A DNA stretch of 29,810 nucleotides from an archaeon. Lineage in GTDB: Archaea > Iainarchaeota > Iainarchaeia > Iainarchaeales > JAAZKV01. The stretch is from positions 1-29,810 of the forward strand of contig JAVHOV010000036.1 in the NCBI GenBank assembly GCA_036170245.1, in the 5' to 3' direction. The translations under genes were made by a program, and so were the position numbers. Positions 4,420 to 27,694 of this stretch are shown piece by piece; positions within the stretch are counted from its first letter, which is position 1, and every line of letters starts with the position of its first letter. The notes under the pieces are model-generated. The model was not told where the DNA came from and did no database searches. It saw nothing but the letters and a program-made list of their open reading frames with translations.

Positions 4420-4525
4420 GCCCTTATGGCTCAGTTGGTAGAGCGCCGGTTTTGTATCCGATTGCGACGAATAGTTGGATTGGTAAATTAACCGATGGTC
4501 GTGGGTTCGAATCCCACTAAGGGCT
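4420..4525 (+). tRNA. tRNA-Thr(TGT) with 33-nt intron (4457-4489) at position 37/38
   Basis: Acceptor GCCCTTA/TAAGGGC; D arm GCTC/GAGC; anticodon stem CCGGT/ACCGA (C27-A43 mismatch); anticodon TGT at 4453-4455; T arm GTGGG-TTCGAAT-CCCAC; U73. BHB motif: TTTG/TAAA central helix, 3-nt bulges, CCGA/TTGG outer helix. Spliced length 73 nt. Confidence 0.93.
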
Positions 4526-4581: not shown

Positions 4582-4623
4582 GCGGGTTAGAATCCCTACT
4601 ATGGGGCTTTTTCTTTTTTTTTA
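4582..4623 (+). repeat. Degenerate direct copy of the tRNA-Thr 3' end plus oligo-T
   Basis: GCGGGTTAGAATCCCTACTATGGGGCTTTTTC versus tRNA GTGGGTTCGAATCCCACTAAGGGCTTTTTC. The 20 nt at 4604-4623 are identical to 4521-4540. Confidence 0.85.
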
Positions 4624-8600: not shown

Positions 8601-11600
8601 AACTCTTGAAATAACTCTTACAGAAGCATTTTCTGATCCAACAACTGAATCAGTTGCTGATTGTATTACTATCAAAATTGGTGGAACTGATATTAAGACA
8701 ATGGATACTCCTACGGTTTCTGCTGTAATTGGCGGTTCGCAAGGAAGTTTCACTGTTGATTCTAATTGTGTTGATGACAGACTTATATTGATAAAGAGTG
8801 ATCTTGGAGTTACTCCAAGTAATCAGTTCACTATTAAACATGGTGCTTCTAATGTATCTGTTACATTAAGTGATCCTGGGACAGTTGCAATACAAAGATC
8901 AGGTGTAGCAGACTCTCCTCTTCTTGGGGCTTATCCAATGCAGATATTGCAAGTAGTAAATAAATCAAAGTTTAACCAAATAGGGTTCATTGATGTTATT
9001 GTTACTCAAGATGGAAGTACATTTACATTAGCAAATCCAATCTTTGACATGAGAAGCAGCGGTTCATTTAATGGGACTATTATTAATAATAATTTCAACG
9101 GACGACAGGATATATATTATCCACAAATGGATATCAGCACAAATTCAGTTGGATTAACTTATACTAAGCCAGGTGTTCCTGCAACAGTTGACTTCAATGC
9201 AGTTGTAAAAAGCCATGCTATTGAAGCCATTTCAACTTCATACTCTTATGGTTCTTTAATCCACCAGTGGAATAAAAGAAATAAGTGTAACTCTAAAGAA
9301 ACAATTGCTGCCCCTGACGATCTTATCTTTACAGATCTTGCCCAAAGCAATTCCGCTGACAGAGTTGGATTAGTAACTGATGCAATAAATGCAGCAGAAG
9401 TTATAACAACTCCTGATGCAAATGATAGGGATCCTTCAAAATCATTTTATGCATTACCTGTTCCAATCCAGCAAAAGATTAGGTCAGAACTCTCTGCAAC
9501 AAGCGGAACATACTCGGCAACTGCTTCAACAGCACCAGTTGATTCTTCTGAACAAAAAGTGCTTCTTTCAAGCGCTTCATTTACAGCAGCTAGTGCTGAT
9601 AATGAGCTTAGCGGAGATCCAATGTCTCCCGGTACTGGCGACACTTATGAAATAATACCTACAATGGCTGGAGATTTTAGTAATTCTTCATGCGACCCAA
9701 TCCCTTACCTAAATGAAGGGGCTTGTGATGGTGTGGGCTCTGAGGAAGGATCTTATAGTGACGATGAAGGTTCTGTTGGAGTTTATGATAGCGATGCCAT
9801 TATAGATGATTCAGATTCCGGAGAAGTTAGTTCAACTTGCAGTAAGTGCGAGATAAATTATGATCGTGTAAGAATTGATCCAAAGTCTCCTACAGGTTAT
9901 GATGGATCTAGTTGCAATGGTGTTGCTTCAAGCGGGGCAAGTACCGAAGCCACTGATGTTACTTCTGGTGACGAGCTTGGCATGGGAACTTTAAGTGGGG
10001 TTGTGCAAGAAAAGGTTACTATTGGAAGCGATTCAGTTTGGACAAAAGTAGTTGAAGATGTAGTAGGCAGACTTAGAGTAATAAAAGTAGGCGGCTGTCA
10101 CCCTTGTCAAATACGTTACTTTGGGGACTGGCTTGGCGGAATTTATACTAAAGGAAAGAAGAAAAGCTGGTGGCATAGTGCTACAGGTGGATTATTTGGA
10201 AGCGGAGGATCAGTTGCAAGTATTTTTGTTCAGGATGAATACATGCACGCGGCTACATTCTTTAATGAAAGAGTATCTACTTGGTCTAAAGAATTAAGCT
10301 TTACCCCAAAAGAAGGAACAGTTGTAAGACTTGAACCAAAGTATGGATCCAATGTTAATCCAAAGTGGATGAATACTGACACTATATTTGATGAAAACGA
10401 TATTGATTATTATAAGGACAAAAATGTTCTTTTAACAGAAGACCTTGTTGTTCCACACGGACTTGTTCCTTTCTCAGTTACTGGCAGTGGCTACGGAGAA
10501 GGATACTCTGCACCAGATCCAACTAACACTTTAGTTGAATATGGAAACAATGGTTTAATTTATTCTGAATTGGACAAAAACAGTATCCCTTCAGGGGTAA
10601 GAGTATTTTTAAAAGGAGGATACATTTATGCTGAATATATTGGGGATGACAAAGCACAAACAGGAAACAATATTGACTTCACCGTTTCAAAAGTAAATTT
10701 ACAAGGCTCAGAATATGCAATAGTTTCAGTAAGAGATTGGGTGCAGGGAGTTAAAGTTGAAAAGACCTTCCAAGTAAAGCTGCTTGGAAATCCAAACAAC
10801 TGTTACTCTACTGAAGGAATTGCTGGTTTAACTGGAAAAGAATTCGCTCCTAAATTATTGTTCAACTGGGACTGGAATACAATAACTTATAACCAGTGTG
10901 ACTCAACGAATTCAAATTATACTTACTGTGATGCAGCACAGTTCACAATCAGCATGTTTAAGAGACTGCAATTGATAAACGAGACAATGCTTTTAAACAA
11001 CAACAGAATGCTTCCCCAATATGCAAGCTTCTACGCTTACTTAATAAAAGATAATTATTCTAGAGCATTTTTGAATGACTTTGATTATTATTATTCAACA
11101 ACTGCTTTTTCAAGCAATGGATTCAACTCAACAAGCGACTCAACTGGATATGATAAATTTATTTCTGAAAATAAGATTGACTATAATCTTAAGACTGGAG
11201 TGGCAAATATCTCATCTGGCGCTTTGGACAAAGGCGGACTTTATAGAGTAGAAATTGAAACTGTATTTGATAACTCCTCAGTTAAGAGTTTGTTCAACCA
11301 AGGAAATACTAATGCAAATATACATGTTATATTTACAAAAATAAAGGAAGCTCCAAATTACAATTTATTCTATGAAACTCCATTCGATGGAGGAGTTGGA
11401 AAGCAGGCTGATGGAACGTTCAAGAGAGTGGGATACGGAACATCACTTGCTGAAGGAGCAGTATTTATTACAGATTCAACAGAAGCTGGCGCAATTCAGG
11501 CAAGAAATTACACTTCGAGCGCTTTAGTTAATATAATTTATTCAAGTTCAGAAGGACTTGCAGTGCTAAATAACCAAAAAGTACTTACTTACACTGATAA

Positions 11601-12222
11601 TGGTTCAAACGGAAAGACTCTTGAATTCAATCCCATGCAGCCAACTCCAATTGTATTATCTATAAAAGATATTGTAGCAGGAAATAATTCTGCAGAAAGA
11701 ACAGTTAAAGCACCTTATGTTATAAGCGGAAACGGATCTAGCGAATCAACTAACAGAACTTGGCAGTTAGTTTCATCAACTCTTGGAAATTCTGGAAAGT
11801 GCACTGATTTTTTAGGAAACCAGGCTTATTCATTCACTGAGCAGAGCAATGGTGCTGAAAAATACTTCCAATGGGAAAAAGTAATTAAATCAGGAACAGT
11901 TGAACTTGGGACAGTATTCTTTACTCCTCCAAATTCAAATACAAAAGTTGATATTTCAAGTGCATACGCAACTAAATTAAAGTTGCTAACTGGTGCAGGA
12001 AGTTCACTTACTTTAGGAACTGCAGTTCAACTTGCAAATTATGATAAAGCTGAATACAATAAATACCAGTCAATAAAAGGAATGCTTGACATGATTGCTG
12101 AAGGAAAATTGTGTGTTTCACAAAACGCTGCAATTAACTTGCAGATATGGTGGAGCCAAGATTATTTGAATGCATTAATAGATTCAGTTCCTTATAACAA
12201 AACAAATTCATGTCTTGATTAG
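5611..12222 (+). CDS. Giant membrane-anchored surface protein with N-terminal carboxypeptidase-regulatory-like (prealbumin-fold) beta domains
   Basis: N-terminal TM segment; repeated V-x-V...G-x-P-V-x-x-A-x-V...TD-x-x-G patterns (TDSEGKATF, TDSNGRVEF, TDENGEW); Ser/Thr/Asn-rich with many N-x-S/T sequons. The start may be TTG at 5620, using GTGAT as RBS. Confidence 0.8.
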   Translation: MIFLGIYTYLEDKWYDLVDWLNQYIPIANVVDSVDRVIPSFILFLALLLLLLVGIFVLIFSGGGAGFGSVFEAEVTVLSRQGAPVPEAIVSFGQVCSTLGDVTIRTDSEGKATFKACSDSANVRVSKEGYSTLSQDISFENNKAKIYLSQLTTAQRIINLKVKDSSKKIIPDAKLYLLCVKGGNIDVNLAENGNQSSSGYLITLPSGCDSIQLKATAEGYNEKKEIIGLVEENKTIFLEKNETNGTVVFTVDSASGKKDAVILVTDELGREDTIIIDDSTGSSTKNYSSGSYSYTATLYGVQKSGTFIVTTGQTTDVEIFFKSVTPASIDPVVKGTASGIYLKLLDGNIGVGGAELRVFYKKGNDTNYFTKLYSSYSGIVGHSPVSDYNSKEYYVLIKSLEYETKLVKVDLKTATEAPQEIILSKGGADLKIKVIDDVNAVVKNAVVSLKKSDFGIANFEEPQTTDSNGRVEFKSLPNGYYKITGVSSTQEGTIGSLRVSGDAEVVLTIVTGTGSIKFNLIDNKGETRNAYCELFESVNNSNDVLLSSANTTLGYFQAASLKAKKNIYLSVPDTNYIYVESPVVEVKRGTQTRDIILYKQSELPNSNKVQMFLEGIFESNPWATNESKATKLLPGKKYYMLFTLIANNETSVNTTANIFVSPKDKNAIDANTKMFLEDAYSTRSAIVQTSLVMNSSIIPYNPLTPSNPTHAKQLNVYFGEKQGLIAFPLLVQVSIDANAVGSTTLYWEGIAGNNKSILYSKEFTLGQSFCFGAHDCPDLLFSNYIKRQGTNESWVPIGNYSTIQIGELYDLNVVVENLTDVEIGSANIVGKIKPTSQTKVLFENDLNKVLSSVNVSQFDTNWAKFVLEPLAVSPAVSVIESLENGSELSSYNGNNAEVKFAVKNKEDINMQVIATNTLNTIYAGTEYSLFYIKTFYKSNKLPSKTIWEAKVKGANFSFATGTTDENGEWLGSMDFSGFEKGTVIVFTAHDANGSNPATLEITLTEAFSDPTTESVADCITIKIGGTDIKTMDTPTVSAVIGGSQGSFTVDSNCVDDRLILIKSDLGVTPSNQFTIKHGASNVSVTLSDPGTVAIQRSGVADSPLLGAYPMQILQVVNKSKFNQIGFIDVIVTQDGSTFTLANPIFDMRSSGSFNGTIINNNFNGRQDIYYPQMDISTNSVGLTYTKPGVPATVDFNAVVKSHAIEAISTSYSYGSLIHQWNKRNKCNSKETIAAPDDLIFTDLAQSNSADRVGLVTDAINAAEVITTPDANDRDPSKSFYALPVPIQQKIRSELSATSGTYSATASTAPVDSSEQKVLLSSASFTAASADNELSGDPMSPGTGDTYEIIPTMAGDFSNSSCDPIPYLNEGACDGVGSEEGSYSDDEGSVGVYDSDAIIDDSDSGEVSSTCSKCEINYDRVRIDPKSPTGYDGSSCNGVASSGASTEATDVTSGDELGMGTLSGVVQEKVTIGSDSVWTKVVEDVVGRLRVIKVGGCHPCQIRYFGDWLGGIYTKGKKKSWWHSATGGLFGSGGSVASIFVQDEYMHAATFFNERVSTWSKELSFTPKEGTVVRLEPKYGSNVNPKWMNTDTIFDENDIDYYKDKNVLLTEDLVVPHGLVPFSVTGSGYGEGYSAPDPTNTLVEYGNNGLIYSELDKNSIPSGVRVFLKGGYIYAEYIGDDKAQTGNNIDFTVSKVNLQGSEYAIVSVRDWVQGVKVEKTFQVKLLGNPNNCYSTEGIAGLTGKEFAPKLLFNWDWNTITYNQCDSTNSNYTYCDAAQFTISMFKRLQLINETMLLNNNRMLPQYASFYAYLIKDNYSRAFLNDFDYYYSTTAFSSNGFNSTSDSTGYDKFISENKIDYNLKTGVANISSGALDKGGLYRVEIETVFDNSSVKSLFNQGNTNANIHVIFTKIKEAPNYNLFYETPFDGGVGKQADGTFKRVGYGTSLAEGAVFITDSTEAGAIQARNYTSSALVNIIYSSSEGLAVLNNQKVLTYTDNGSNGKTLEFNPMQPTPIVLSIKDIVAGNNSAERTVKAPYVISGNGSSESTNRTWQLVSSTLGNSGKCTDFLGNQAYSFTEQSNGAEKYFQWEKVIKSGTVELGTVFFTPPNSNTKVDISSAYATKLKLLTGAGSSLTLGTAVQLANYDKAEYNKYQSIKGMLDMIAEGKLCVSQNAAINLQIWWSQDYLNALIDSVPYNKTNSCLD

Positions 12223-12307
12223 AGTTCATTTAACAGTTCTTTTTTAAAAACTTAAAGTATTTAAATTAAGAAATTCTTTATACTAGTGAATTTGTTGGTG
12301 CTAAATA

Positions 12308-15300
12308 ATGCCTGATATTAAAAATATTGATTCTGAAGAAGGGTATTACACTGATTATAACGAAAAAGAAACTAAAAATACTTCCTCTAAAGAATTTCCT
12401 TTAAAAAAAATTATGGTTGTTTTATTAATCATTTTTGTAATAGGAATTGTTTTAATTTTAGCAATTAATTTATTTTCTCAAGGAAATAATTTACTATTTT
12501 TTTCAGGAGACGGGAGCATATTCAAACAAAATGTGACTGTTTCAAAGAATGGACAAATGATTGAATCTTTTTACAGTGATGGTAACAATTTAGTCCTTAA
12601 AGGAAATCCTCTTGATTCAATTAAGGGAAAAATTTCTTCTCCTCTTTTATCAGGTGGAAAGAAAAACGGAAAAATAACTATTACTGGTGGGGGAGGGAGA
12701 ATCACTATTTTAAATTCAGGAGAAGGATTTTTTATTGATGAAAAAGGAAATGTTATTTTCACTGTGAGCCCTTCAGATCTAATTGATTTGGATGAGTACT
12801 ATGATGAAAATAGCAATGAATACATTTTTCCTGAAGATTTTAATTATTCTACAACATTTGAATTTATTGTAACTGATGAAAACACGGGTGAAGAAACAAT
12901 AATAATTGCTCCAGTGGATTTTATTTTTAGCAATCAAAATTCAAATTCTTGCATAGCTCTCAACAGATCTTTTATCAACGAATCAACACATTATGGTTCT
13001 CTTACAGCAGGAGTTCTAGTTGATGTACTGTGTGAATCTTATTCAAATTTGACTTCTGGTGTAGTTTGGGAAAGCGAAAGAATGGGAAATGTTGAATTAA
13101 TTTTTGGAAATTATAATTATGCTTCAGTTCTTGCGGATTATAATAAAGCTGTTCTTCCTATTCCTCCAACAGGAGAATATCCTTTAATAATAATTTTTAC
13201 TCCATTTAAAGAAGCTGCTGGGAAAAAAGCCTATTTCTCAGTTAATTTTACACTCAACGGAGTTACTTCAAAAATAGATTTTGAAGTTCCAATTGATAAT
13301 CTTGAACAATGTGTTCAAATAACTCCTGCTGATCAATTGGTGTTGAAAAAAGATGATGAATCAGTTTCATTCAAAGTTGATGTGTCTTCATGTTACTCTA
13401 ACAGAATAACTGTTTCTTTGTGTGATAATGACAGCGGATGCTCTGGAGGAACTCAAGGGGGAATCAATTTATCCCAATACAGTTTCCAGTTAAGTCCGAA
13501 AGGCAATTCAAGTAAATTAGTAAGCATTACAAAGGGCGACATGGCAGGGGCATATGGTATTCCAATTTATGCAAGAGTTACTGGTGCATCAAAAGTATTA
13601 GTTGATGAAAAAACAGTTATTGTAGAACCATTTAATGGTGAAACTGTTTTCCCCGAAAAATATGTTGTTTCAACTATTGGCACTGGGAAAGATTCAATCA
13701 CTGTCAGAAACAATGATTTAGCTGAAGAAGTTGAAGTCAATTCCAGCATATGTACATTATACAAAAGTTCACTTGGAATAAGTGCTGGAGCAAATATTTC
13801 TTCATACAATTCTCAATTATTTGGAAAGAGCTGGCTTGCTTCACTTTCAAGTGATTCTGAAAAATATGCAGGAAGCGGGAAATATCAGGCTGCGTTATTC
13901 AGTCTTATGGGGCAGCTTGAAAAAAAGAGAATAGAAGTTCAAAATGAATCCTATGCAAAAAATTCTTCAATAAAAAAATCTTACTTAATGACTGCTGATG
14001 TGTTGGCTAAAGTGAATGCTGCAAATGATAATACTGACTCAATGTTAAAATACTTGAAAAATGTTGACGATAAAATACAGGCTGCAAATGATTATTCTGA
14101 GACAGATATGGCTAGTCAGATTGTTAGTCTTTCAACAGGAGCTTCAACACTATTTACCTCTGCGACATTCTTATCTGCAGATGTTGATGCCGCAGTTGCT
14201 GCGGTAAATGCTGCAAATGCAACTGGTATTGCATGTATTCCATCAAAACCAGGTGTAACTGCTGCTACAGTTGCAACTACAAAAGCTGCAGAAGCTTCTG
14301 CTTCACTGGTCGCCACTACTTCAACAATTTTAGGTATTGCGGGTTCAACTTACGGATTGTACACTGGAATGATTGGACTAACTAGTGATGTTGAGGAAGT
14401 AAATTCTGCATCTGCTTTAAACAATACAAAAAAGACAATTGAGAAACTTCAAGCTGCAAGAGAAGAAGCCAAAACTGCTCTTTCCTTTGCTGAATTAATG
14501 CTGATAAGCGCATCAATAGACAGTTTTTATTCAATATCAAAAGAAGATTTAACTGCAGAAGATTATGAGGGGGATGTTCTAACCCACATTCAAAATGTTT
14601 TGGATCTTTTGGGAGATGCTCAAACATACTTAACTAATGCAATGGATGATATTACAATAGGGCTTCCTGACACTAAATCAAATGTTGAATCAATCATAAG
14701 CATAGCAGCTTCTGTTGCAAGTCTTGTTACAATGCTTCCTGGTGCAGAAGCAAATGCCAGTGAAGTAATATCTGAAATGAACATTGCTTTTACTTCAATG
14801 AATACTGCTGTAGCTGCAGCAACTCCTGCCTGTGATGTTCCTGCTACTAGTGCGGCTTGCTGTCCGTTTGTTCCATTAGGGACGACTGCTGCTACAAAAT
14901 TAGGTGCAACAAACCTGACTGGACTTTCAACTCTTGCTTCAGTTACGCAATATGCTTCTATTGTTAATACTTGTTACAGTCTTCTTAGAACATATCAGAC
15001 GTTGACTGACAATTATGCAGAGGATTACTCAAAAGCAGCTACCCAGATGAGCGATTTAATTCCAAAAATAAATGAAGCAAAATTAGCTGCGCAAGCACTT
15101 GTTGATTTTCTTCCAACTTCAATTGATGCGACAAACTGGCTTGGAGTTGAATCAAAGAAAACAAGTGACGTTGCAAATTATACTAGCGAAGAATATGGTA
15201 TTGATGACGAGCAATATAATAAGAAAAGATTGAATGGAGTGGTGGGAACAGTTCTTGCAAATGCATTTGTTAATGGAGCATATGAAGGGGGAGTTTATTC

Positions 15301-17521
15301 TGAAGAAAGCAATGCTTACTTAAGCGGGGCAAGCACATCAAGCAAAATGTGTGATGATAAAAATAAACTAACTTTTGCTGACGAATCAGCTTGGAAAGAG
15401 AACTGTGCAAATAAAGTGAAACTTACTCTTTTAGATTATAAACTAAATTTGCTCCAAGATGCTCAAAAACCAAATCTTTCTACTCAAGGAATAGTTACTT
15501 ATTGGGATTTTTCTAATTCTAAAGTATATGATGTATTTGAAGAACAAACTGTAGATTTGTTATTTGCAAATACTGGACTCACTAAAAATACTTACGGGGT
15601 ACTGGAATTTCCTTTAACAAAACATATTCATGCTAATCCCACAGAAGTTACTTCAAATTTTGGTCCATTTGATGTTCCTGATGAATCTGAAAATATTACT
15701 TACAAGTACCACATGAAATTTAATACTGTTCCAAGAAAAAGTAATAACTACACAAAAGAAACAGGGGCTAACAGTTGCAGTATTGGGATACTGCGAGGAG
15801 ATACAGGAAATACTCAAAGCCTTCCAAAGATTATTCTTTCATGGGATTGGAACAGTGTTGTTCTTCCTACTGAATCACAAATGCAAAATAATTCAAATTA
15901 TTCAAGAAAACTTAATTCAGCAGTAATTGGAACTAATTCGCCTAATGAACCTTATCTTGATGCATCCCAGTTAAGCATACTTATAAGCAAAAAACTTGGG
16001 TCCCTTGAGTATTTCCTAGATAGTGTTCAAACTGGTTGCCCACTTAACCCAGTGGATGAAATACTTACTCAAATAGCACCTAATATTGTTGTACAAAGCC
16101 AAAATGAAACTGGCTATACTTCTGAAGAAATTACTCCTACAACGCAGAAGTGTTACCTTCCTTTAACTACAAGAGAATATGATGGAAAACCAGCTTTATA
16201 CTATTACTTGTCTAAATCAAATACTTCACAAGATGCTGATTTCTTTAATTCGGCAAAAGATATTCAGAAAACAAATACTAGAGAAGAATTCTTAACATTA
16301 GTTGATTTTAATGCGTTTTTAATGAGAGATGGATATGGAATTGATTTCCAAAGTGATTTTGTTACAAGTTTCTCTACAAAATTATTTGCTTCATCTTATT
16401 CTTTCCTCAATGATCAATCAGGGCTAAAAACATATTTCTTTAATCCTGACAGATTTTATTTTAGTTCAAAAGCAAATTCATTGGTGTCAAAGAAAGAATG
16501 GGCTTTACCAGATGCGGGGAAATATAGAGTTAGAGCAGTAATTGATTTTGATAATACTGCAAAATTATTTGAATCATCTTCAACTGCAGCAAAAATAATT
16601 ATTTTGCTTGATTTAATTGAACCAGTAAGCAGTGACTATAGTCCTCTCTACTACACTCCTATTGATGGATTCACTGGACTTTCTGCAAATAACAATAGAA
16701 TTGGATACGGTTCTGCACTATCAGGCGGATATGATTTACCAATAGTTAATTCTCAAGGGGCAATTCTTTCAACCCAGCAAAAAAATTCCTTAGCCAAGAT
16801 AAAACTTGTAAAATCCAGTGATTTCTTTTTGCTAAATGCTCTGCCTTCAATGCGCTCAAAAATACTTGACTATAGTTTATCTTTGATATTGACTAATGAA
16901 TCTTCAATAGTATTTACTCCTACTACTGCCACTCCTTTGCTGTTTGAAATAAATGAAACCCAAGGAAACAGAACTCTGTTGAATTACTCAGTAGCAAGAG
17001 AAAATACTGAATTAATTTCAGGAATGAATTCATTATTTATTTTATCTAAATTAGATGGCTGTTATGATTATACAGGAAAAGAAGAATCTGCATTTGTGAA
17101 CAATGGGCCGGATTATGGGAACGGTTTAATATTTGGATTATACTTGCCTATTGCTAAAAATGATGGGTTAAATTTTGTTAAGACTGTAGCATATGCTCCA
17201 ACTCAAAATAATTACTATTTGAAGAAACCATTAATGGGTACAATTTATTCTCCTCTTTCACCAAATGCAACAAATAATGATATTATTCTAAGCGGAGTGC
17301 CAAATATGAAATCAAATAATTCAATAGGTAATGAAACAGTTGATTCATTGGAAAAGATAATGCAGGGAGTAGAAGCAGGAACTATTTGCGTTGCAAATCT
17401 AGGGACAAGAGAGGTATTCTTTTGGCCAGAAGAAAATATGTTTGATAAGAAGTACGTTGGTGAAGAATTTAGTCAAAAGCAATTGAGTGCAATGAATAGT
17501 TGTACAAAACAACAAAACTAA
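12308..17521 (+). CDS. Giant membrane-anchored surface protein, paralog of the upstream gene, with a central Ala/Thr-rich helical region
   Basis: GGTG RBS; N-terminal TM (IMVVLLIIFVIGIVLILAINLF); C-terminal motifs shared with the 2203-aa protein (PKxxxxWDWN, RxGYG, TPxDG). Confidence 0.8.
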   Translation: MPDIKNIDSEEGYYTDYNEKETKNTSSKEFPLKKIMVVLLIIFVIGIVLILAINLFSQGNNLLFFSGDGSIFKQNVTVSKNGQMIESFYSDGNNLVLKGNPLDSIKGKISSPLLSGGKKNGKITITGGGGRITILNSGEGFFIDEKGNVIFTVSPSDLIDLDEYYDENSNEYIFPEDFNYSTTFEFIVTDENTGEETIIIAPVDFIFSNQNSNSCIALNRSFINESTHYGSLTAGVLVDVLCESYSNLTSGVVWESERMGNVELIFGNYNYASVLADYNKAVLPIPPTGEYPLIIIFTPFKEAAGKKAYFSVNFTLNGVTSKIDFEVPIDNLEQCVQITPADQLVLKKDDESVSFKVDVSSCYSNRITVSLCDNDSGCSGGTQGGINLSQYSFQLSPKGNSSKLVSITKGDMAGAYGIPIYARVTGASKVLVDEKTVIVEPFNGETVFPEKYVVSTIGTGKDSITVRNNDLAEEVEVNSSICTLYKSSLGISAGANISSYNSQLFGKSWLASLSSDSEKYAGSGKYQAALFSLMGQLEKKRIEVQNESYAKNSSIKKSYLMTADVLAKVNAANDNTDSMLKYLKNVDDKIQAANDYSETDMASQIVSLSTGASTLFTSATFLSADVDAAVAAVNAANATGIACIPSKPGVTAATVATTKAAEASASLVATTSTILGIAGSTYGLYTGMIGLTSDVEEVNSASALNNTKKTIEKLQAAREEAKTALSFAELMLISASIDSFYSISKEDLTAEDYEGDVLTHIQNVLDLLGDAQTYLTNAMDDITIGLPDTKSNVESIISIAASVASLVTMLPGAEANASEVISEMNIAFTSMNTAVAAATPACDVPATSAACCPFVPLGTTAATKLGATNLTGLSTLASVTQYASIVNTCYSLLRTYQTLTDNYAEDYSKAATQMSDLIPKINEAKLAAQALVDFLPTSIDATNWLGVESKKTSDVANYTSEEYGIDDEQYNKKRLNGVVGTVLANAFVNGAYEGGVYSEESNAYLSGASTSSKMCDDKNKLTFADESAWKENCANKVKLTLLDYKLNLLQDAQKPNLSTQGIVTYWDFSNSKVYDVFEEQTVDLLFANTGLTKNTYGVLEFPLTKHIHANPTEVTSNFGPFDVPDESENITYKYHMKFNTVPRKSNNYTKETGANSCSIGILRGDTGNTQSLPKIILSWDWNSVVLPTESQMQNNSNYSRKLNSAVIGTNSPNEPYLDASQLSILISKKLGSLEYFLDSVQTGCPLNPVDEILTQIAPNIVVQSQNETGYTSEEITPTTQKCYLPLTTREYDGKPALYYYLSKSNTSQDADFFNSAKDIQKTNTREEFLTLVDFNAFLMRDGYGIDFQSDFVTSFSTKLFASSYSFLNDQSGLKTYFFNPDRFYFSSKANSLVSKKEWALPDAGKYRVRAVIDFDNTAKLFESSSTAAKIIILLDLIEPVSSDYSPLYYTPIDGFTGLSANNNRIGYGSALSGGYDLPIVNSQGAILSTQQKNSLAKIKLVKSSDFFLLNALPSMRSKILDYSLSLILTNESSIVFTPTTATPLLFEINETQGNRTLLNYSVARENTELISGMNSLFILSKLDGCYDYTGKEESAFVNNGPDYGNGLIFGLYLPIAKNDGLNFVKTVAYAPTQNNYYLKKPLMGTIYSPLSPNATNNDIILSGVPNMKSNNSIGNETVDSLEKIMQGVEAGTICVANLGTREVFFWPEENMFDKKYVGEEFSQKQLSAMNSCTKQQN

Positions 17522-18196: not shown

Positions 18197-19189
18197 TTAG
18201 TTTCTGTCAATTATTTTTGTTTTATATTTAGAAGATTTATTTTTTAGCAAAACAATTCTTGAATTATCTTTCTCGTTTTCAAATTTAAATGAAGGTAATA
18301 GTTCAAGCAATTTATTTGTGAAGGCCTTTGTTTCTAAAAAAGAAGGGGTGTTTTCTTCCTTTAATCTTTGTCTTGAAAAACCAAGCCACATGTATGATTT
18401 TATTTCAATAAAATCTGGCTGAACTGCTTCTAAAACTTCACCGAATTCTTTTATTGTTTCTTCACTATCATTAATTCCTTTAATTAAAGTTAATCTAATT
18501 ACAGTTCTTGTCGGCAAAAGTGCAAGTAATGCTAAAGAAGTCAAATAATTTTTCCACCCCTTTTTATCATTGTTGCAGGTAATGCTCTTGTAAAGTTTTT
18601 CATTTGGGCCAACCATTGAAATGTATAACTGAGTCGGAAGAGAATCTTGTTTTGCTAATTTTTTAAGCATACTCGGATTCTGCCCGTTTGAAACCAAAAA
18701 AACTGTTTCGGTTGTTTTTCTATTTTTTAGTTCCTTGATTAATTTTGGCAAGTTTTTGTATAATGTCGGTTCTCCAGAAAGAGAAATTGCCCAGTGCTTT
18801 GTATTCATTGCATTGTCAAATTGTTCTTTTGTTACTTGTGAGTTTCCTTTAAATCCAGTGAGAAGTTTTTTTCGTTCAACAATTAAACCTTCAATCAATT
18901 CTTTTGGATCTGTGTCTTGTGCAATATTGTCGGGAACACAGCCCATGTACTCCTTTGGTCTCCAGCAGAAAATACATGAATTGTTGCACCAGAATGTTGT
19001 TGGTGCAATTTGGTGGCAGGAGATTGTATCTGCCCCATAAAAATCCTGTTTATAACAATGACCTTCTCCACGAAGAGCTTTTTTATTCCATTCACAAACT
19101 TGAATACTCGCATCTTTATAAAAGCCATATTTTTTATGTGAAAAATTATTTAATAAGTTTTTTTTGCTTAATTTAGCCATCTGTATCAA
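18197..19189 (-). CDS. taw1: 4-demethylwyosine synthase TYW1/Taw1 (radical SAM)
   Basis: CYKQDFYG, radical-SAM motif WCNNSCIFCWRP, AISLSGEPT, PTQLYIS, FIEIKSYMWLGFSRQRL. The start is probably the ATG at 19180. Confidence 0.92.
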   Translation of the reverse strand: MIQMAKLSKKNLLNNFSHKKYGFYKDASIQVCEWNKKALRGEGHCYKQDFYGADTISCHQIAPTTFWCNNSCIFCWRPKEYMGCVPDNIAQDTDPKELIEGLIVERKKLLTGFKGNSQVTKEQFDNAMNTKHWAISLSGEPTLYKNLPKLIKELKNRKTTETVFLVSNGQNPSMLKKLAKQDSLPTQLYISMVGPNEKLYKSITCNNDKKGWKNYLTSLALLALLPTRTVIRLTLIKGINDSEETIKEFGEVLEAVQPDFIEIKSYMWLGFSRQRLKEENTPSFLETKAFTNKLLELLPSFKFENEKDNSRIVLLKNKSSKYKTKIIDRN

Positions 19190-21181: not shown

Positions 21182-21295
21182 CCCCCCTTAGTTTAGCAGC
21201 TAAAACGCTCGGCTGTAGACTCTATAATCCTTGAAAAAGAAATTTTTCAAGTAACAGAGACCGAGATACCCCCGGTGCAAGTCTGGGAGGGGGGA
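21182..21295 (+). tRNA. tRNA-Tyr(GTA) with 41-nt intron (21219-21259) at position 37/38
   Basis: Acceptor CCCCCCT/AGGGGGG with C1:G72 and A73 (archaeal Tyr identity); D arm GTTT/AAAC; anticodon stem CTCGG/CCGAG; GTA at 21215-21217; T arm CCCGG-TGCAAGT-CTGGG; central helix CTGT/ACAG. Spliced length 73 nt. Confidence 0.9.
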
Positions 21296-21364
21296 TTTAC
21301 TTTTTTTAAACAAAAAATTAAATATTACTTGAAACAAACCTTTTTAATTAACTAAATACTTTAG

Positions 21365-21781
21365 ATGATTATGGAAAAGAACTTAATTAAAGTGATTGTA
21401 ATTATTGTTGTTTTAATTGGGTTAATTTTAATTTCCCCTGTCTCTGATTACAAATCTGGCACTACTTGTCCTTATCATACTTTTAAAAGTGATTGCTTAG
21501 GATTAAAATTTCCTAATGTGTTTTTATTTTTTGAGGGAGTAGGGGGTTCAACTCATTGGTCTTGTTTAGGGATAGTTTCAAACACAAAATGTTATCTTAA
21601 TGAATGTTCTTCAGATCCGAATGCAAAATATGAAGTTCCTTGTAATTTTTTAGGTAATTATTCAAAACTTTGTGCTGATGATAGGAATGCATTTTCAAAA
21701 GATATTAATTCATATTATCATTGTTGTAATTTAGTATATGGTTTATGTGATGAGAAATATAATCAATTTAATTCCAACTAA
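21365..21781 (+). CDS. Cys-rich membrane-anchored or secreted protein (unit 1)
   Basis: N-terminal hydrophobic segment followed by 10 cysteines in about 110 aa. Confidence 0.75.
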   Translation: MIMEKNLIKVIVIIVVLIGLILISPVSDYKSGTTCPYHTFKSDCLGLKFPNVFLFFEGVGGSTHWSCLGIVSNTKCYLNECSSDPNAKYEVPCNFLGNYSKLCADDRNAFSKDINSYYHCCNLVYGLCDEKYNQFNSN

Positions 21782-21800
21782 AAACTCTAACTGCTTCCAT

Positions 21801-21824
21801 GTGCAGAGTCTGGGAGGGGGGATT
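21801..21824 (+). repeat. tRNA-Tyr 3'-end copy R1
   Basis: GTGCAGAGTCTGGGAGGGGGGATT; 18 nt (21807-21824) identical to 21280-21297. Confidence 0.92.
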
Positions 21825-21894
21825 CCCAAAAGGGAAGACCAACTGGATGAAGTGCTAGTTATAAAAACTTCTAAACTGATTTTGGTGTGATAAA

Positions 21895-22563
21895 ATGATT
21901 GACTCAATGGATTTATTCGCCAAAGCAATAATGGATAGAATTAATGGGGATAATGCCGACTTCTTTTTTATAGATAAAAATGATAAAAGATTTGTCCATA
22001 ATTTGGACCGATATTACAAGACTCCTTTTCCTGCGACAAGATTAGAAAAAAAACTTATCAAATTATGCTATGGTGACATCCTTGATGTTGGTTCTGCAAC
22101 AGGAAATTATTTTCCCGAACTAATGAAACAAGGGACAGTTACGGGGGTAGAATACAGTACACACTTGGTAAAAATTGCGAAAAAACAAGGGATAACCAAT
22201 ATTGCAAAGGCAGATATTTTTTCATACAAAGCAAGCAAAAAATTTGATACAATAACCCTCTTAGAAAATAACCTCTGCCTTGGCGGAAGTGAAGAAAAAA
22301 CCAAAGAACTTATTAAAAAACTATTAATATTATTAAAAGAAGATGGAAAAATCCTTAGCATGATTTCTAAGCGTGCCAAGGACAACAACTTTTTTATTGC
22401 AGAGTTAACTGCGGAATACAAAGGAAAAAAAGGGACCTTATTCAAATACTTCAACATAAACCCCAACTACCTCAACCAGATGTGTAAAAACATGAATTGC
22501 AATATAAAAATTCTTGGCCAAGACGAAAGAAATTATCTACTGGAACTCAAAAAGGAACGATAA
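21895..22563 (+). CDS. Class I SAM-dependent methyltransferase (unit 2)
   Basis: Motif I ILDVGSATG, VTGVEYS, ADIF, FDTITLL, LKEDGKI. Confidence 0.88.
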   Translation: MIDSMDLFAKAIMDRINGDNADFFFIDKNDKRFVHNLDRYYKTPFPATRLEKKLIKLCYGDILDVGSATGNYFPELMKQGTVTGVEYSTHLVKIAKKQGITNIAKADIFSYKASKKFDTITLLENNLCLGGSEEKTKELIKKLLILLKEDGKILSMISKRAKDNNFFIAELTAEYKGKKGTLFKYFNINPNYLNQMCKNMNCNIKILGQDERNYLLELKKER

Positions 22564-22606
22564 ACCCGAGTCACAAACTACTCGCTAATAACAATAAGCC
22601 AATTCA

Positions 22607-22649
22607 CTCGGTCGCAAGTCTCTGGGGTGGGGATTTACTTTTTATACTT
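22607..22649 (+). repeat. tRNA-Tyr 3'-end copy R2
   Basis: CTCGGTCGCAAGTCTCTGGGGTGGGGATTTACTTTTT versus tRNA CCCGGTGCAAGTCTGGGAGGGGGGATTTACTTTTT. Confidence 0.85.
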
Positions 22650-22657
22650 CTTTTTTA

Positions 22658-22699
22658 TTAACCCCACACAATACCCATTTAAATCTTTTGTGGGGTTAA
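22658..22699. promoter_or_regulatory. 11-bp perfect inverted repeat bracketing the fic TATA box (putative operator)
   Basis: TTAACCCCACA (22658-22668), a 20-nt spacer containing TTTAAAT, then TGTGGGGTTAA (22689-22699); ATG at 22707. Confidence 0.7.
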
Positions 22700-22706
22700 C
22701 TTTGTA

Positions 22707-23651
22707 ATGGTTTACTTTACTGAGAAAAAGATTAAGGGTAAAAAATACTTATATGCGGTGCAGTCGATTAGGCTTCGTGATGGAAAAGTAACAAAAATTT
22801 CAAAATTAGTAAAAGACAAAATACTTACTTCTGAATTAAAAGACTTTTTTAATGAAAAAGAAAAAGAGCTTTTTGGAAAAGAATCAATTGTTTCTTATAA
22901 AACAGATTCTATTTTTACTAAAGATCAAATAATAAAAATTGAAGCTACAAGACAGGAATACAAAAATATTTTACGCAAATTGACAAAAGCTCAGTTAAAG
23001 GATTTATTTGATAGATTTACATCAAATTTTACTTATGAATCAAATGCAATTGAAGGCAATTCTTTAACTCTTAAAGATGTTGCAATGGTACTGTTTGAAG
23101 GTAAAGTCATTGTCGGAAAAGAGTTAAGAGAAATATATGAAACAAGGAATTCAAGAGAAGTAGTGGAATTGATTCTTAAAAATAAATTTAACTCAACTGA
23201 AAAAGATATAATTCAAATGCACAAGTTGCTTGTGAAAGATATGGGTGTACAAGAAGGGTACAAAAAAATACCTAATTACATACTTGGTCGAAAAGTAGAA
23301 ACAACTCTTCCTGAAAATGTTGAAAAAGAAATGAAAGATTTGGTTGATTGGTTAAAAAAAGAAAAATCAATTCATCCTATACAAAAAGCAGCTTTGTTGC
23401 ATGGTAAATTTGAAAAGATTCATCCATTTGATGATGGCAATGGCAGAGTTGGAAGATTCTTGATAAATGTTCTTCTGATTAGTGAAGGTTATGCTCCGCT
23501 AATAATAAGAAAAAGTCAAAGAATTGCTTATATGAAAGCACTAGAAGATTTTGATAATGGTTATACTAAGAACTTAGAAAGATTCTTACTTGATAAATAC
23601 AAAAATACGTTCAAAAATTTCTTTCAAATTTATGCAAAATACTTGAAGTGA
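22707..23651 (+). CDS. Fic-family protein, class II (unit 3)
   Basis: Catalytic motif HPFDDGNGRVGR and N-terminal inhibitory motif SNAIEGN. Confidence 0.93.
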   Translation: MVYFTEKKIKGKKYLYAVQSIRLRDGKVTKISKLVKDKILTSELKDFFNEKEKELFGKESIVSYKTDSIFTKDQIIKIEATRQEYKNILRKLTKAQLKDLFDRFTSNFTYESNAIEGNSLTLKDVAMVLFEGKVIVGKELREIYETRNSREVVELILKNKFNSTEKDIIQMHKLLVKDMGVQEGYKKIPNYILGRKVETTLPENVEKEMKDLVDWLKKEKSIHPIQKAALLHGKFEKIHPFDDGNGRVGRFLINVLLISEGYAPLIIRKSQRIAYMKALEDFDNGYTKNLERFLLDKYKNTFKNFFQIYAKYLK

Positions 23652-23688
23652 TAAAAATGAAACAAGAAAATAATTTGTTTGGTGAAGC

Positions 23689-23736
23689 AGATACCTTGAT
23701 TCCCGTGTGCAAGTCTCTGGAGGGGTATACCTTTTT
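23689..23736 (+). repeat. tRNA-Tyr 3'-end copy R3
   Basis: AGATACC...CCCGTGTGCAAGTCTCTGGAGGGGTATACCTTTTT versus tRNA AGATACCCCCGGTGCAAGTCTGGGAGGGGGGATTTACTTTTT. Confidence 0.8.
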
Positions 23737-23790
23737 CTTCAGCAAATCACTTGCGAATCATTTTTATTAACAATTTAGTGTTATTTTGTT

Positions 23791-24393
23791 ATGGAATTTG
23801 AATTTAAAAATGGTCAAATCTTATTTGATCGAGAACTTAGTGATTTGGATGAATTTGTAACAAAGTTTGTAAACATACTTAATAAGAATAAAGTTAATTA
23901 TGTTCTCGTTTCAGGCTATATTGCAATACTTTTTGGCAGAAGCAGAGAAACAGAAGATATTGATATTATTATAGATAAAATATCTTTTAAAAAATTTGAT
24001 TCTTTGTGGAATGCACTTGGAAAAGAATTTGAGTGTTTAAATACTTCTTCATCAAAAGAAGCATATAAGGAGTTTTTATTAGAGAAATCTTCAATTAGAT
24101 TTGCATATCCTGGAGAATTTATCCCTAATATGGAAATAAAGTTTCCTAAAAAAGAGTTTGAAAGAGAAACACTTGATAATAAATTAATAGTAAAAGGAAA
24201 AAGTTATTCCTTTAATATTTCGAATTTGGAAAAACAAATTGCGTTTAAATTATTTCTTGGTTCAGAAAAAGATTTGGAAGATGCAAGACACTTATGGAAT
24301 ATATTTAAAGATAATCTAAATAAACAATTAATTATTACAAAAGCAAAAGAATTAAAAGTTTTAGATGACTTAATTGATATGGTGTTGGGATGA
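23791..24393 (+). CDS. Putative nucleotidyltransferase (Pol-beta superfamily) (unit 4)
   Basis: YVLVSGYIAILFGRSRETEDIDII (G...R-x-T-x-D-x-D) and C-terminal K...KDLEDA. Confidence 0.75.
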   Translation: MEFEFKNGQILFDRELSDLDEFVTKFVNILNKNKVNYVLVSGYIAILFGRSRETEDIDIIIDKISFKKFDSLWNALGKEFECLNTSSSKEAYKEFLLEKSSIRFAYPGEFIPNMEIKFPKKEFERETLDNKLIVKGKSYSFNISNLEKQIAFKLFLGSEKDLEDARHLWNIFKDNLNKQLIITKAKELKVLDDLIDMVLG

Positions 24394-24536
24394 AATATTC
24401 AAAAGAAGAATTGCAAGAATACAAAAGTCAAAATTTTAAGGAAAGACTCAAATTTATAGATGATTATACAAACTGGTTAAAAAAAACACCAAATAAAGAA
24501 TGGTCAAAGCAACAAAACAAAATTCTTTCTCAATAA
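24390..24536 (+). CDS. 48-aa protein translationally coupled to the nucleotidyltransferase (not in ORF track)
   Basis: ATGA start/stop overlap with GGTG RBS; MKYSKEELQEYKSQNFKERLKFIDDYTNWLKKTPNKEWSKQQNKILSQ*. Confidence 0.7.
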   Translation: MKYSKEELQEYKSQNFKERLKFIDDYTNWLKKTPNKEWSKQQNKILSQ

Positions 24537-24554
24537 TGGATTTAGTTTCCTCTT

Positions 24555-24593
24555 GTGCAGAGTCTTTGGGAGGAGGGTTTACTTTTTATACTT
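24555..24593 (+). repeat. tRNA-Tyr 3'-end copy R4
   Basis: GTGCAGAGTCTTTGGGAGGAGGGTTTACTTTTTATACTT; shares GTGCAGAGTC with R1 and TTTACTTTTTATACTT with R2. Confidence 0.85.
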
Positions 24594-24611: not shown

Positions 24612-25589
24612 ATGCAAAAATTAGTTTCAATAATTTTGATTATTTTACTTGTCTTATTCTTGCTTTTAACTGGTTGCGTTCAGCCGACTGTTTGTGGTGA
24701 TGGGGTTTGTCAAATTTGGGAAGATGAAATTAATTGTTCTGTACTTAATGGAGGGGATTGCCCTAAGGTTCATGACGAAAATATAATTAACCTTAAAGGT
24801 CAATACTCTGGATTTTATGAGTTTCCTTCATCTTTTTTTGATTCATCAAATCTTTCTCCAAGTGAAGTGCTCAAAGGAACTGATGCCCAATATTTAGCTT
24901 TAAGCGATTTACATAATAATATTGTTCCTTATTCCTTTGCAAATATTGAGTATGATGAAAATGCTTATGGTTACACCACTCCTGAAGGAATAAAGCTTGG
25001 AGTGTATGCTAACCCTAAATTGAATAACGGGTATCAAAGATGGGAATTAATGGCACATGAACAAGGGCATAACTTTTTTGGAGGAACTAGTTCTTTTTAC
25101 AATATTTTATCTAATGGAGAACCATTTATTCAGGAAAGTTTTTCTGTAGTGAGCGCATTTTATACTAATTATTACATTTTGGATAAAAATTTCAATTTGT
25201 CTGAAAAAATATTAAACGATATGAAGTATGATTTTAATAATGGCAGAAAATATCAAGAACAAATGCATGCTGAATATGTTGATTTAAATAAAAATTTTAA
25301 TACTCTTGATGTAAAAACAAGTCAAGCTTTGAGTTTTGAAATGATTTTGTTAGGCGAACAATATGGTTGGGATAAATTTAAGCAAGTTGCCAAAAATTTT
25401 TCTGAAAAAAATAATGAATTGTTTGATTTTCAAAACGATGGAATTACTTCCGAAGAGCAATCAACATACATTATTGCATCATTAAGTTCGGCTTTTGGAG
25501 TAGATTTTAGAGAGAAGTTTAATAATCTTAATTTTTTAATAGATGATGAATTTTATGAAGAAGTTTATTTTAAATTAACAACTTCTTGA
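24612..25589 (+). CDS. Putative lipoprotein zinc metallopeptidase with Cys-rich N-terminal module
   Basis: Signal peptide ending LTGC, then CGDGVC...NC...DCP, an HExxH motif (HEQGH) and a downstream Glu (QESF). Confidence 0.65.
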   Translation: MQKLVSIILIILLVLFLLLTGCVQPTVCGDGVCQIWEDEINCSVLNGGDCPKVHDENIINLKGQYSGFYEFPSSFFDSSNLSPSEVLKGTDAQYLALSDLHNNIVPYSFANIEYDENAYGYTTPEGIKLGVYANPKLNNGYQRWELMAHEQGHNFFGGTSSFYNILSNGEPFIQESFSVVSAFYTNYYILDKNFNLSEKILNDMKYDFNNGRKYQEQMHAEYVDLNKNFNTLDVKTSQALSFEMILLGEQYGWDKFKQVAKNFSEKNNELFDFQNDGITSEEQSTYIIASLSSAFGVDFREKFNNLNFLIDDEFYEEVYFKLTTS

Positions 25590-25599
25590 TCGTTGTATT

Positions 25600-26343
25600 A
25601 TGAGTGATTATGATAAAGAGAATAGAGCAAAAAAGTATTTGCTTACTGATGAAAGTTATAGGAAGAAATTATTTATTGGCCCGACTTATTTGAATCTTTT
25701 AGGGAATACAAAAGGTAAATCAATTGTTGATATTGGTTGCGGGAGCGGTTTTTCTTCAAGATTAATAAAAAAATCTGGGGCTAAAAGTGTTACTGGTATT
25801 GATAAATCAAAAAAACAAATTTTTTTAGCAAACGAAATTGAAAAGAAAGAAAAGTATAATATAAATTATTTAGTTGGAAATATTGCAAGTACTTCTTTTT
25901 TTAGCAATAATAAATTTGATATTGCTGGTGCTGAGCTTTTATTGCATAATGCAAAAACAAAAAAAGAATTATTTATTATGTGCAAAAATATTTCCCTTCT
26001 TTTAAAAAAAGGGGGAAAATTTGTGATGGTTAATCAGGACCCAGTGAATTTTAAATTAGGTAAAATTAGGTTCAATGAAAAATACGCGTATTCTGGCAAG
26101 AAAGACGGTTCAAAAATAAAATGCACTCTTTATACAAATTCAAAAAGAAAGATTTGTTCAGTTACAGTGTATCATTGGAATAAAGATGTTTATGAACAAG
26201 CACTCATTAAATTTGGATTTACTAATATTAAGTGGTACAATTTAACTAAATCAAAAGATGCAGACCTTATTTTGGGTAAAAAAAGAGCTGATGAGTTCAT
26301 GCAAGCTCTTCCTTCAGTTGGACTCAGCTGTACTAAAAAATAA
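25600..26343 (+). CDS. Class I SAM-dependent methyltransferase
   Basis: IVDIGCGSG, VTGIDKS, FDIA, LKKGGKFV. Confidence 0.9.
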   Translation: MSDYDKENRAKKYLLTDESYRKKLFIGPTYLNLLGNTKGKSIVDIGCGSGFSSRLIKKSGAKSVTGIDKSKKQIFLANEIEKKEKYNINYLVGNIASTSFFSNNKFDIAGAELLLHNAKTKKELFIMCKNISLLLKKGGKFVMVNQDPVNFKLGKIRFNEKYAYSGKKDGSKIKCTLYTNSKRKICSVTVYHWNKDVYEQALIKFGFTNIKWYNLTKSKDADLILGKKRADEFMQALPSVGLSCTKK

Positions 26344-26370: not shown

Positions 26371-26679
26371 TTAGTTTGTAAGTATCAGCAAAAATGAAGT
26401 GTTTTTGAGTACCTTAAGTGAATGAACTTCTTTTTTCTTCATATGAATCAAAACATTTTTAGCCATTTTAATTTTTTTACCCTTGAGTGTGAAAATCCCT
26501 TCTCCTTCTATAACTAAAACAAATCCTTCTTTGGTTGAAGTGTGTTCGCTAAGTTCTGAACCTTTGCTCATGCAAAAAAGAGTAGTGTCGCCTGATTCAT
26601 TTTTTACTAGAACTTTACTAAGTATTCCGCTTTTTGGGTATTCAATTAATTTTTCGAGTTCAAAATTATTTTCTTTCAA
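26371..26679 (-). CDS. Cupin-domain protein
   Basis: TLFCMSKGSELSEHTS...VIEGEG...HSL; TTG start preceded by GTGAT. Confidence 0.85.
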   Translation of the reverse strand: MKENNFELEKLIEYPKSGILSKVLVKNESGDTTLFCMSKGSELSEHTSTKEGFVLVIEGEGIFTLKGKKIKMAKNVLIHMKKKEVHSLKVLKNTSFLLILTN

Positions 26680-26935
26680 GCTATCACTTGGTTAGTTTAA
26701 GGGTTAAATGTTAATAAATGTATTTTGTTCTCCTTCTTTTGCAAAATTTAGCTTTTTTACTTAATTAGTTTGCTTAATGAAAGTTTGAATTTTAACCCAA
26801 GAAATACATTTTTAAAGGTTTTTAGGGACTAAGTATGTTAGAAAACTGCTTTTAGTGAACAACTTTTATTTTTCTTGCAGTTAAGAAAGAGAACAGTTAG
26901 AGAGTTAGAATTTTAGAAAAAATGGGGTTATTATT

Positions 26936-27694
26936 ATGAATCATTATAGGGAAATTGAAGGCTTGCCAATTAGTTTAATCAGTGAAAGAACTGCATTCAG
27001 ACCTTTTATGGGTACAACAGCAGTTAACCCTAACTCAAAAATCGAGGGCAAAAAAACAGGGACTACTACAGTTGGAGTAATAGGAAATGGATTTGTTTTA
27101 CTTGCTGCAGATCAACAAGCCACAATGGGAAGCGTTGTAGCTGATGAAGACGCACAAAAAATTTACCAAATTACTGATTACGTTGCATTAACAATTTCAG
27201 GCGGAGTGGGAGATGCACTTGCAATTATAAGATTCTTAAAAGCACAGGCAAATTTATACGAGATAGAAAGGGGAACAAGAATAACTCCTAGAGCAGTTGC
27301 TTCACTTTTATCAAATGTTTTAAACGGAAACAGATATTACCCATTTATATTCATGCCATTAATCGGCGGAGTAAATAACAAAGCTGAACTTTATGAAATA
27401 GATCCTGTTGGAAGTATTGCTGACAAGAAGAGATATGGGGTTACAGGATCTGGATCAGATTTTGCAATTTCAATCCTTGATGCTGACTTTAAAGAAGGGA
27501 TGACTGAAGATGAAGCTTTGGCTCTTGGAGTAAAAGCAGTAATGGCTTCAAAGAACAGAGATATTTACACAGGCGGAAGAACAATTTCTGTAGTAATACT
27601 TGACAAAGAAGGATATAGACAAGTTGATTCAAAAGAAGTTGAAAAAGCAATAGCAAAAACAAAAATTAATTTTGCAAAACTCCCAAAAATGTAA
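26936..27694 (+). CDS. psmB: Proteasome beta subunit
   Basis: Propeptide cleavage site KTG|TTTVG, LAADQQATMG, GSGS, RDIYTG. Confidence 0.95.
   Translation: MNHYREIEGLPISLISERTAFRPFMGTTAVNPNSKIEGKKTGTTTVGVIGNGFVLLAADQQATMGSVVADEDAQKIYQITDYVALTISGGVGDALAIIRFLKAQANLYEIERGTRITPRAVASLLSNVLNGNRYYPFIFMPLIGGVNNKAELYEIDPVGSIADKKRYGVTGSGSDFAISILDADFKEGMTEDEALALGVKAVMASKNRDIYTGGRTISVVILDKEGYRQVDSKEVEKAIAKTKINFAKLPKM

Follow-up and report, generated by a model that had tools for sequence, protein, structure and literature searches.

The tRNA-Tyr locus and its array

The stretch of DNA analysed here (the window) comprises 29,810 nt of contig JAVHOV010000036.1, assembly GCA_036170245.1, and corresponds to contig C36 of the Iainarchaeales genome G000 (867 kb, 86% complete). 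It carries a tRNA-Tyr(GTA) gene with a 41-nt intron (21182..21295, + strand), which an intron-free tRNA scan missed, which is recognised by Rfam (RF00005, 42.9 bits) and ARAGORN, and whose C1-G72 pair and A73 were read from the sequence. Behind this gene stands an array of small gene units separated by worn copies of the last 21-23 bases of the tRNA. We think it probable that the array is a stack of integrase-free cassettes exchanged at these copies, likely by a borrowed integrase whose gene, as predicted, is cut in two when its element integrates. Loci are labelled here with L-numbers, and X5, X8 and X9 denote other runs, from three other studies.

The anchor site (attB/attL) is the tRNA 3' end at 21275-21297 (+). 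A preliminary description made from the sequence alone had reported four degenerate copies in direct orientation shortly after stop codons, and an alignment scan and a position weight matrix (PWM) recovered all four, on the + strand and 19-55 nt past a stop codon in each case: copy 1 (21801..21824), with one additional nucleotide in the T-loop, copy 2 (22611..22635), whose odd right half stays with the Fic unit in other runs, copy 3 (23707..23727) and copy 4 (24555..24579), the last detectable. In a local-alignment scan of the 867-kb genome the copies score 34-43 and the next-best match 28. The PWM, trained on loci outside the window, gives copies 1-4 scores of 25.3, 21.9, 15.1 and 16.6 bits; at 14 bits or more it finds nine matches genome-wide, namely tRNA-Tyr, its four copies and four further matches at the 3' ends of other tRNAs, and the best other match reaches 12.5. 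Among 31 tRNAs called by ARAGORN (several near contig ends), a downstream series of copies is found behind tRNA-Tyr only. Two other tRNAs have one partial 3'-end copy each, and the matches for Lys are neighbouring tRNA genes. The motif is not genome-wide; a genome-wide occurrence independent of tRNA-Tyr would have counted against the preliminary description.

The four units measure 527, 811, 1092 and 853 bp, in keeping with the gene-sized units of about 0.5-1.1 kb first described. Unit 1 (21296..21822, +) has a T-run, a TATA-like box and a truncated left arm, and encodes a 138-aa Cys-rich, membrane-anchored protein (21365-21781, +) with no family match over cut-off; it is a 66% DNA match to one unit in L060, and the right arm at copy 1 belongs to a family found at 10 of 151 sites. 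Unit 2 (21823..22633, +), which has no homologous unit among 89 complete units, encodes a class I SAM methyltransferase (21895-22563, +). Unit 3 (22634..23725, +) encodes a Fic protein (22707-23651, +) and recurs site to site in other arrays (84% in L029, 75% in L070). Unit 4 (23726..24578, +) holds a 200-aa nucleotidyltransferase-like gene (23791-24393, +) with a 48-aa partner (24390-24536, +), and recurs in L019 (86%), L063, L066, L041 and others, in L066 and L041 directly behind the tRNA. Among the cargo labels proposed earlier, methyltransferase and Fic were recovered by Pfam, and nucleotidyltransferase is indicated by Atlas look-alikes (0.97), not by Pfam. The array has no integrase gene, as noted before, and a search of it for an integrase remnant found none. 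Unit order is identical in four assemblies from one study, possibly the same source as the window DNA.

Spread and anatomy of the units

The array is real, order-wide and actively reshuffled. The tRNA-Tyr core was detected in 32 of the 38 genomes of the family, and at least one copy was found in 16 of the relatives' 31 tRNA-anchored loci once weak matches were removed; L060, for example, has eight copies and L042 and L028 have six. Arrays also stand in other families of the order (L167, with nine copies, L147, L160 and L168), and units recur in different arrangements. No opposite-strand copy was seen in 60 loci scanned. The single-contig genome G039 has two lone reverse-strand core copies (L156:3535 and L157:4089) far from tRNA-Tyr, which perhaps reflect rearrangement.

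The PWM site set omitted six weak or in-gene matches, sites less than 130 nt from a contig start and exact duplicates; one omitted match, L097:1919, proved real, and five sites were added for unit counts. Near-duplicate strains were retained, and kin are not independent. L113/L030, L114/L065, L115/L060, L116/L018, L118/L158, L122/L028/L110, L123/L159 and L133/L038 were each counted once as the same locus. The 89 complete units have a median length of 848 bp and 79 of them are 2 kb or shorter, comprising 52 one-gene, 22 two-gene and five three-gene units. The common layout is a core, a T-run (after 74 of 112 junctions), often a TATA-like box (before the first gene in 32 of 71 cases, against 5.5 ± 2.2 in shuffles), up to three genes in the same orientation, a brief left arm and the next core, with 101 of 111 genes pointing away from the tRNA. 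Left arms stay with the upstream gene and right arms with the downstream gene, and each forms families common to unrelated cargo. In hosts whose tRNA has T66 (L018, L065, L024, L041, L101), T is present at 7/9 junctions, against 2/53 in A66 hosts. The cargo across arrays includes HicAB, MazEF, ParDE and PIN pairs, Fic, AAA_14+DUF4143, GNAT, DUF1697 and many unknown surface-type proteins. Fic homologues in L050 and L051 have no sites, so cargo genes occur outside arrays too.

Two observations concern the tRNA gene itself. The tRNA-Tyr intron varies greatly in length and sequence among L016-L074 and is absent in L059, L100, L119, L132 and L167-L169. In L032 (1008-1034) a left box of the junction type, CCCCGTG, is found in the tRNA-Tyr gene proper, where it makes the T-stem weaker; it may reflect either mis-assembly or a leftward crossover. 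The idea that left arms are decayed copies of intron and exon was dropped, as their conservation begins near G53; arms of family f32 do resemble more of the tRNA exon.

These features recall integrons and clusters of attC sites lacking integron integrases (CALINs), which share ordered, reshuffled, co-oriented cassettes and similar cargo (PMC9668308; the published accounts cited here were available in part, and our comparisons hold for those parts). A true integron or CALIN that chances to stand behind a tRNA would account for the co-oriented one-gene units and for a cargo rich in toxin-antitoxin pairs, GNAT, Fic and DUF1697, and attC integrons do exist in archaea (PMC9668308). It is nevertheless extremely improbable here. 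No protein passes the TIGR02249 cut-off of 265 (the best in G000 scores 197.6, and the relatives' integrases 42-49 bits). Boxes fitting what we take to be the R''/R' attC consensus flank both sides of 1 of 112 junctions, and folding reaches z<-2 at 11/112 (mean z -0.4). Integron cassettes are mostly promoterless, whereas TATA-like boxes are common here, and in place of IntI, attI and an attC hairpin there is a tRNA end followed by promoter-like boxes and a T-run. The early label "integron-like" therefore holds for the behaviour of the array and not for its membership.

Exchange of units at the copies

Comparison of closely related loci shows that units change at the copies. For example, the near-identical metagenome contigs L086 and L111 are identical over 3000/3000 upstream nucleotides and diverge 9 nt past A73, and L082 brings a third partner to the same flank (483/483 identical, differing from +4). 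L100 and L102 are identical over 700/700 downstream nucleotides, and the identity extends back only 14 nt, to the tRNA in one and to another unit in the second. L074/L109 (106/106 identical) and L061/L063 (143/144) are further cases, and L090 contains an exact 789-bp tandem unit. In X5, X8 and X9 the match to the Fic unit starts within copy 2, at position 22617. The X9 Fic unit, which has 84 differences in 1058 nt from unit 3 of the window, belongs to an array of 16.6 kb with a different order, in which 850 unrelated nucleotides precede the nucleotidyltransferase unit, and an identical 62-nt arm is found in X9 on other cargo. An apparent circle joint ("goes back 1085") proved to be an array junction in X9.

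Units 3 and 4 are found across genomes and ranks in matches that start 5-39 nt after a site; where matches start further inside, hidden or partly deleted sites were seen in 9 of 13 places inspected, and fused units with half-deleted cores exist. The identity shared at swaps spans 7-21 nt, and the exchange point lies within the core at no single fixed base. The proposal that units are gained and reordered at the repeats is supported: relatives carry other genes in other orders, and the breakpoints fall within the repeats. Addition one unit at a time at the tRNA, also proposed, fits the single cases of L100/L102 and of the last unit common to L059/L102; the decay of copies with distance that might accompany it was not seen (see below). 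The contigs L024/L025, and likewise L061/L062, come from a single genome bin and agree in the tRNA 3' exon but not in the units behind it, which suggests mixed populations.

Could the host shuffle its own units, through XerA, homologous recombination or replication slippage between repeats, with no visiting integrase? In G000 no recombinase other than XerA exceeds a family cut-off, the point of exchange varies, matched arms are mostly absent from the units, and the L090 duplicate, with 35 bp of flanking identity, can be explained by slippage. Against this, the 7-21 nt shared at swaps are short for the homology length needed by RadA, slippage deletes or duplicates and brings no new units behind the tRNA, and the junction cores match a sequence block present at both ends of short-integrase elements (see below). 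We regard a purely host-driven process as decidedly unlikely.

Junction stubs and tRNA-Tyr integrases

Many left arms hold a short reading frame (stub) that starts with ATG and remains open into the core. This is the case at 80 of 112 junctions, against 34.5 ± 4.8 in shuffled arms (maximum 48 in 300), 31 on the reverse strand and 18 of 39 at tRNAs; a set of sites not called as tRNA (45/70 with a stub) was not used, several tRNAs being mis-called. A ribosome-site-like word precedes 35 of 79 stubs (15.9 ± 3.2 expected from shuffles), and the three frames are used 39, 28 and 13 times, 67 stubs lying in the two frames also used by short integrases. In the window, the stub at copy 3 (23657..23770, +; MKQENNLF..PVCKS) is intact, is preceded by GTGAT, a ribosome-site-like word, and reads into the copy; its family occurs at 25 of 112 junctions, and the window member is frame-shifted within the core. 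It is likely a relic of Int(N), the N-terminal part of an integrase. The tail of unit 3 matches, at 87% identity, that of another L090 unit, one encoding 216 aa. The stub at copy 4 is short, from ATG 24536, the one at copy 2 is decayed (ATG to ATA at 22560, overlapping the methyltransferase stop codon), and the arm at copy 1 is truncated.

In relatives, tyrosine integrases stand directly behind tRNA-Tyr or an inner copy (L018, L028, L030, L038, L060, L062 and L065), and integrase elements of 3.9-11 kb stand in the same arrays. Long integrases (400-435 aa, with a zinc ribbon) start at an ATG of their own, preceded by a stop codon in frame, in 9/9 cases, and 7-13 bp are common to both ends in the four elements checked. 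Short integrases (about 330 aa) form one clade nested among the long ones (SH-aLRT 95, in a quick tree with two stop-containing rows left out), with an invariant H284-x-x-R287 and, one stray match aside, only Pfam PF00589 and SAM domains. All eight short-integrase loci lie directly at the tRNA, none behind a stub, and in all eight the frame is open from the core or T-arm as far as the conserved region at the protein start, and is one of the two frames that most stubs use; five of the eight lack an ATG. Two elements are complete, L120 (10.8 kb) and L158 (11.4 kb). In both, an integrase lacking a start codon lies at one end, and the only other site found has a stub in the same frame; inverted arms of 17 and 12 bp, respectively, surround the core, and the ends share a 21-26-bp block starting in the T-loop, a block which the junction cores match. 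L060 is a possible third case. Since the short clade is open from the core in the stub frames, often without an ATG, its members are probably split ("suicidal") integrases that, judged by sequence, do not belong to the SSV family, and they are the likely helpers of the cassettes.

None of the recombinases of G000 lies on the window contig or belongs to the short clade: C6 encodes XerA, C11 an integrase behind a tRNA-Ser and C30 a partial one, and no serine recombinase was found in the genome. Viral contigs gave no pattern match and one distant integrase. The C11 integrase (L057:774-3500; 455 aa, zinc ribbon) lies directly behind tRNA-Ser(GGA); the gene after it encodes an AAA_14+DUF4143 ATPase, of a family that cassettes carry as well, and the contig ends before any attR. 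At L058:1165-1785 a partial integrase (the C-terminal 205 aa) adjoins MarR-like and nucleotidyltransferase-like genes.

The same observations bear on whether the units are inert leftovers of large integrase-bearing islands, piled up and trimmed as passengers only, in the manner of cis-mobilizable elements (CIMEs). In L017, 26 C-terminal integrase codons remain 20 nt behind the tRNA (E 2e-8), integrase elements of 3.9-11 kb share the arrays, the stubs look element-derived, fused units have half-deleted cores, and cores such as copy 2 would be unable to restore a tRNA. However, none of the 79 small units contains an integrase remnant, the size class is narrow, a given unit keeps its ends across genomes and ranks, one identical flank has three different partners, and the identical 62-nt arm in X9 is carried by other cargo. 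We therefore consider mere leftovers unlikely; eroded islands, raised earlier as an alternative origin of the units, have the L017 tail in their favour and the absence of remnants from all 79 small units against them.

Proposed movement and origin of the units

If units are cassettes served by a borrowed integrase, a unit would leave as a circle between two cores and re-enter at the tRNA or at an inner junction. The helper would be the short integrase of larger elements using the same tRNA site, whose Int-N would lie at the far end of the element and meet the remainder of the gene only once a circle forms; stubs in cassettes would then be Int-N relics marking descent from short-integrase elements. 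Intact zinc-ribbon integrases, with their shorter core at the same tRNA, likely serve some units. As the window genome has no cognate integrase, its array would stay in place until a helper arrives. The likeliest route for new genes would be an element deleted down to its last operon, of which the L017 tail is the single direct trace. The recombinase in trans suggested by the preliminary description thus has a candidate, with integrases at the same site in relatives and none cognate in the window genome.

Several observations weigh against this reading. The exchange point is not one fixed base: L083 and L104 differ 8 nt before the end, and the run comparison places it in the T-loop, crossover "sublocations" within tRNA genes being a known phenomenon. 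Copies do not decay with distance from the tRNA (rho -0.05, p 0.71). No circle or joined attP was found, the circular units sought did not appear in contigs, and terminal repeats were present in 0/34 metagenome loci (assembled contigs, which drop rare variants). The remaining 15 of the 31 family tRNA loci have no copy (some are cut by contig ends), L035 and L039 have variable genes without copies, and matched inverted arms are missing from most small units (mean 8.7 vs 8.4 bp crosswise). Chance accounts for some stubs, which overlap cargo genes; L132 has no stub at its first site, and the stub match of L060 is uncertain (there is a possible worn site at about 8570). GTG or TTG starts are possible for the ATG-less integrases, three of which have an inner ATG. 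No intact stub-plus-integrase protein was seen among the best 60 of 120 N-termini inspected or in a motif scan of all 120, and no cognate integrase is present in the 86% complete window genome (best 33-38% over long stretches).

More tentatively, and with considerable doubt, the arrays could be a separately evolved DPANN equivalent of integrons, in which cassettes would have retained a promoter and a start codon from a split non-SSV integrase. A cassette landing before a resident Int-C would complete the enzyme and trigger excision and reshuffling; the helper would remove itself, and the standard shells would keep taking up new genes. Such an equivalent would explain why all eight short-integrase loci lie at the tRNA and none behind a stub.

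Relation to other tRNA-end systems

The array belongs with tandem accretion at tRNA ends. CIMEs (PMC5704250) and archaeal tandem elements (PMC6563490) likewise show duplicated tRNA ends, chimeric junctions and integrase-less members stacked with integrase-bearing ones, the latter seen here in relatives only. The units here differ in that most measure 0.5-1.5 kb and carry a single gene or a pair, in that as many as nine follow one another and are swapped singly, and in having standard arms on unrelated cargo; the smallest thaumarchaeal element is 2.6 kb and has an integrase. The additive flexible islands of Alteromonas (PMC4898812) and the tycheposon islands of Prochlorococcus (10.1101/2020.12.28.424599) resemble the arrays in their tRNA-gene cassettes, partial tRNA repeats and an order unrelated to host phylogeny. 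These are bacterial, multi-gene or integrase-carrying units with scattered repeats, and in the portions available no stub or split integrase is described.

The suicidal integrases of SSV, pTN3 and pT26-2 (PMC7253208, PMC8371274) have an att inside the integrase frame, read in more than one frame, with Int-N at one end and Int-C at the other, which is the layout predicted for the short clade; Sulfolobus, with its intN remnants (PMC3718332), offers a further related tRNA-end case. The short clade has H-x-x-R where the SSV family has R..KxxR..Y (PMC8371274), a distinction drawn from the published motif and Pfam, not from direct comparison with SSV1 or pTN3 proteins. Since the clade nests among intact zinc-ribbon integrases and combines H-x-x-R with PF00589 and SAM domains, its split layout likely arose separately. 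The available part of PMC7253208 reports no tandem insertions, whereas here stubs stand in arrays, and the short-clade hosts come from groundwater-type samples, unlike those of SSV, pTN3 and pT26-2. In the full-text literature, with most subscription papers outside it, we found no description of archaeal single-gene tRNA-end arrays or of Iainarchaeota mobile elements. What is likely new here is the presence of junction stubs matching the frames of tRNA-Tyr integrases that are likely split, non-SSV and DPANN.

Through such arrays, archaea with genomes below one megabase would acquire and rearrange genes for surface proteins, toxin-antitoxin pairs and modification at one predictable address, with no need of integrons. 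With a candidate recombinase named, the mechanism is testable; a second origin of the self-splitting layout, if true, bears on why suicidal integrases persist, and an enzyme that accepts worn cores of 14-23 bp could serve as a tool.

Other features of the window

Past copy 4, two further variable genes (24612..26343, +) encode a 325-aa lipoprotein-like protein and a 247-aa methyltransferase; they have a cassette-type start and no closing copy, and are likely older units. The distal flank (26371..27694) consists of a cupin gene (-) and psmB, the proteasome beta subunit gene (+), a pair also present in L090; psmB is found in L027, L035, L039 and L097 too. The region 5611-17521 contains two very large genes of 2203 and 1737 aa, the first with Ig-like domains and the second without a Pfam match. 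ARAGORN's second "tRNA-Tyr" at 4420-4525 is likely a tRNA-Thr(UGU) with an intron, judging from U73, and a single worn copy of its 3' end lies at 4582-4608, about 57 nt downstream. A wyosine-forming radical SAM gene (18197-19189) stands 2 kb upstream of tRNA-Tyr, and is also found in L094 and L101.

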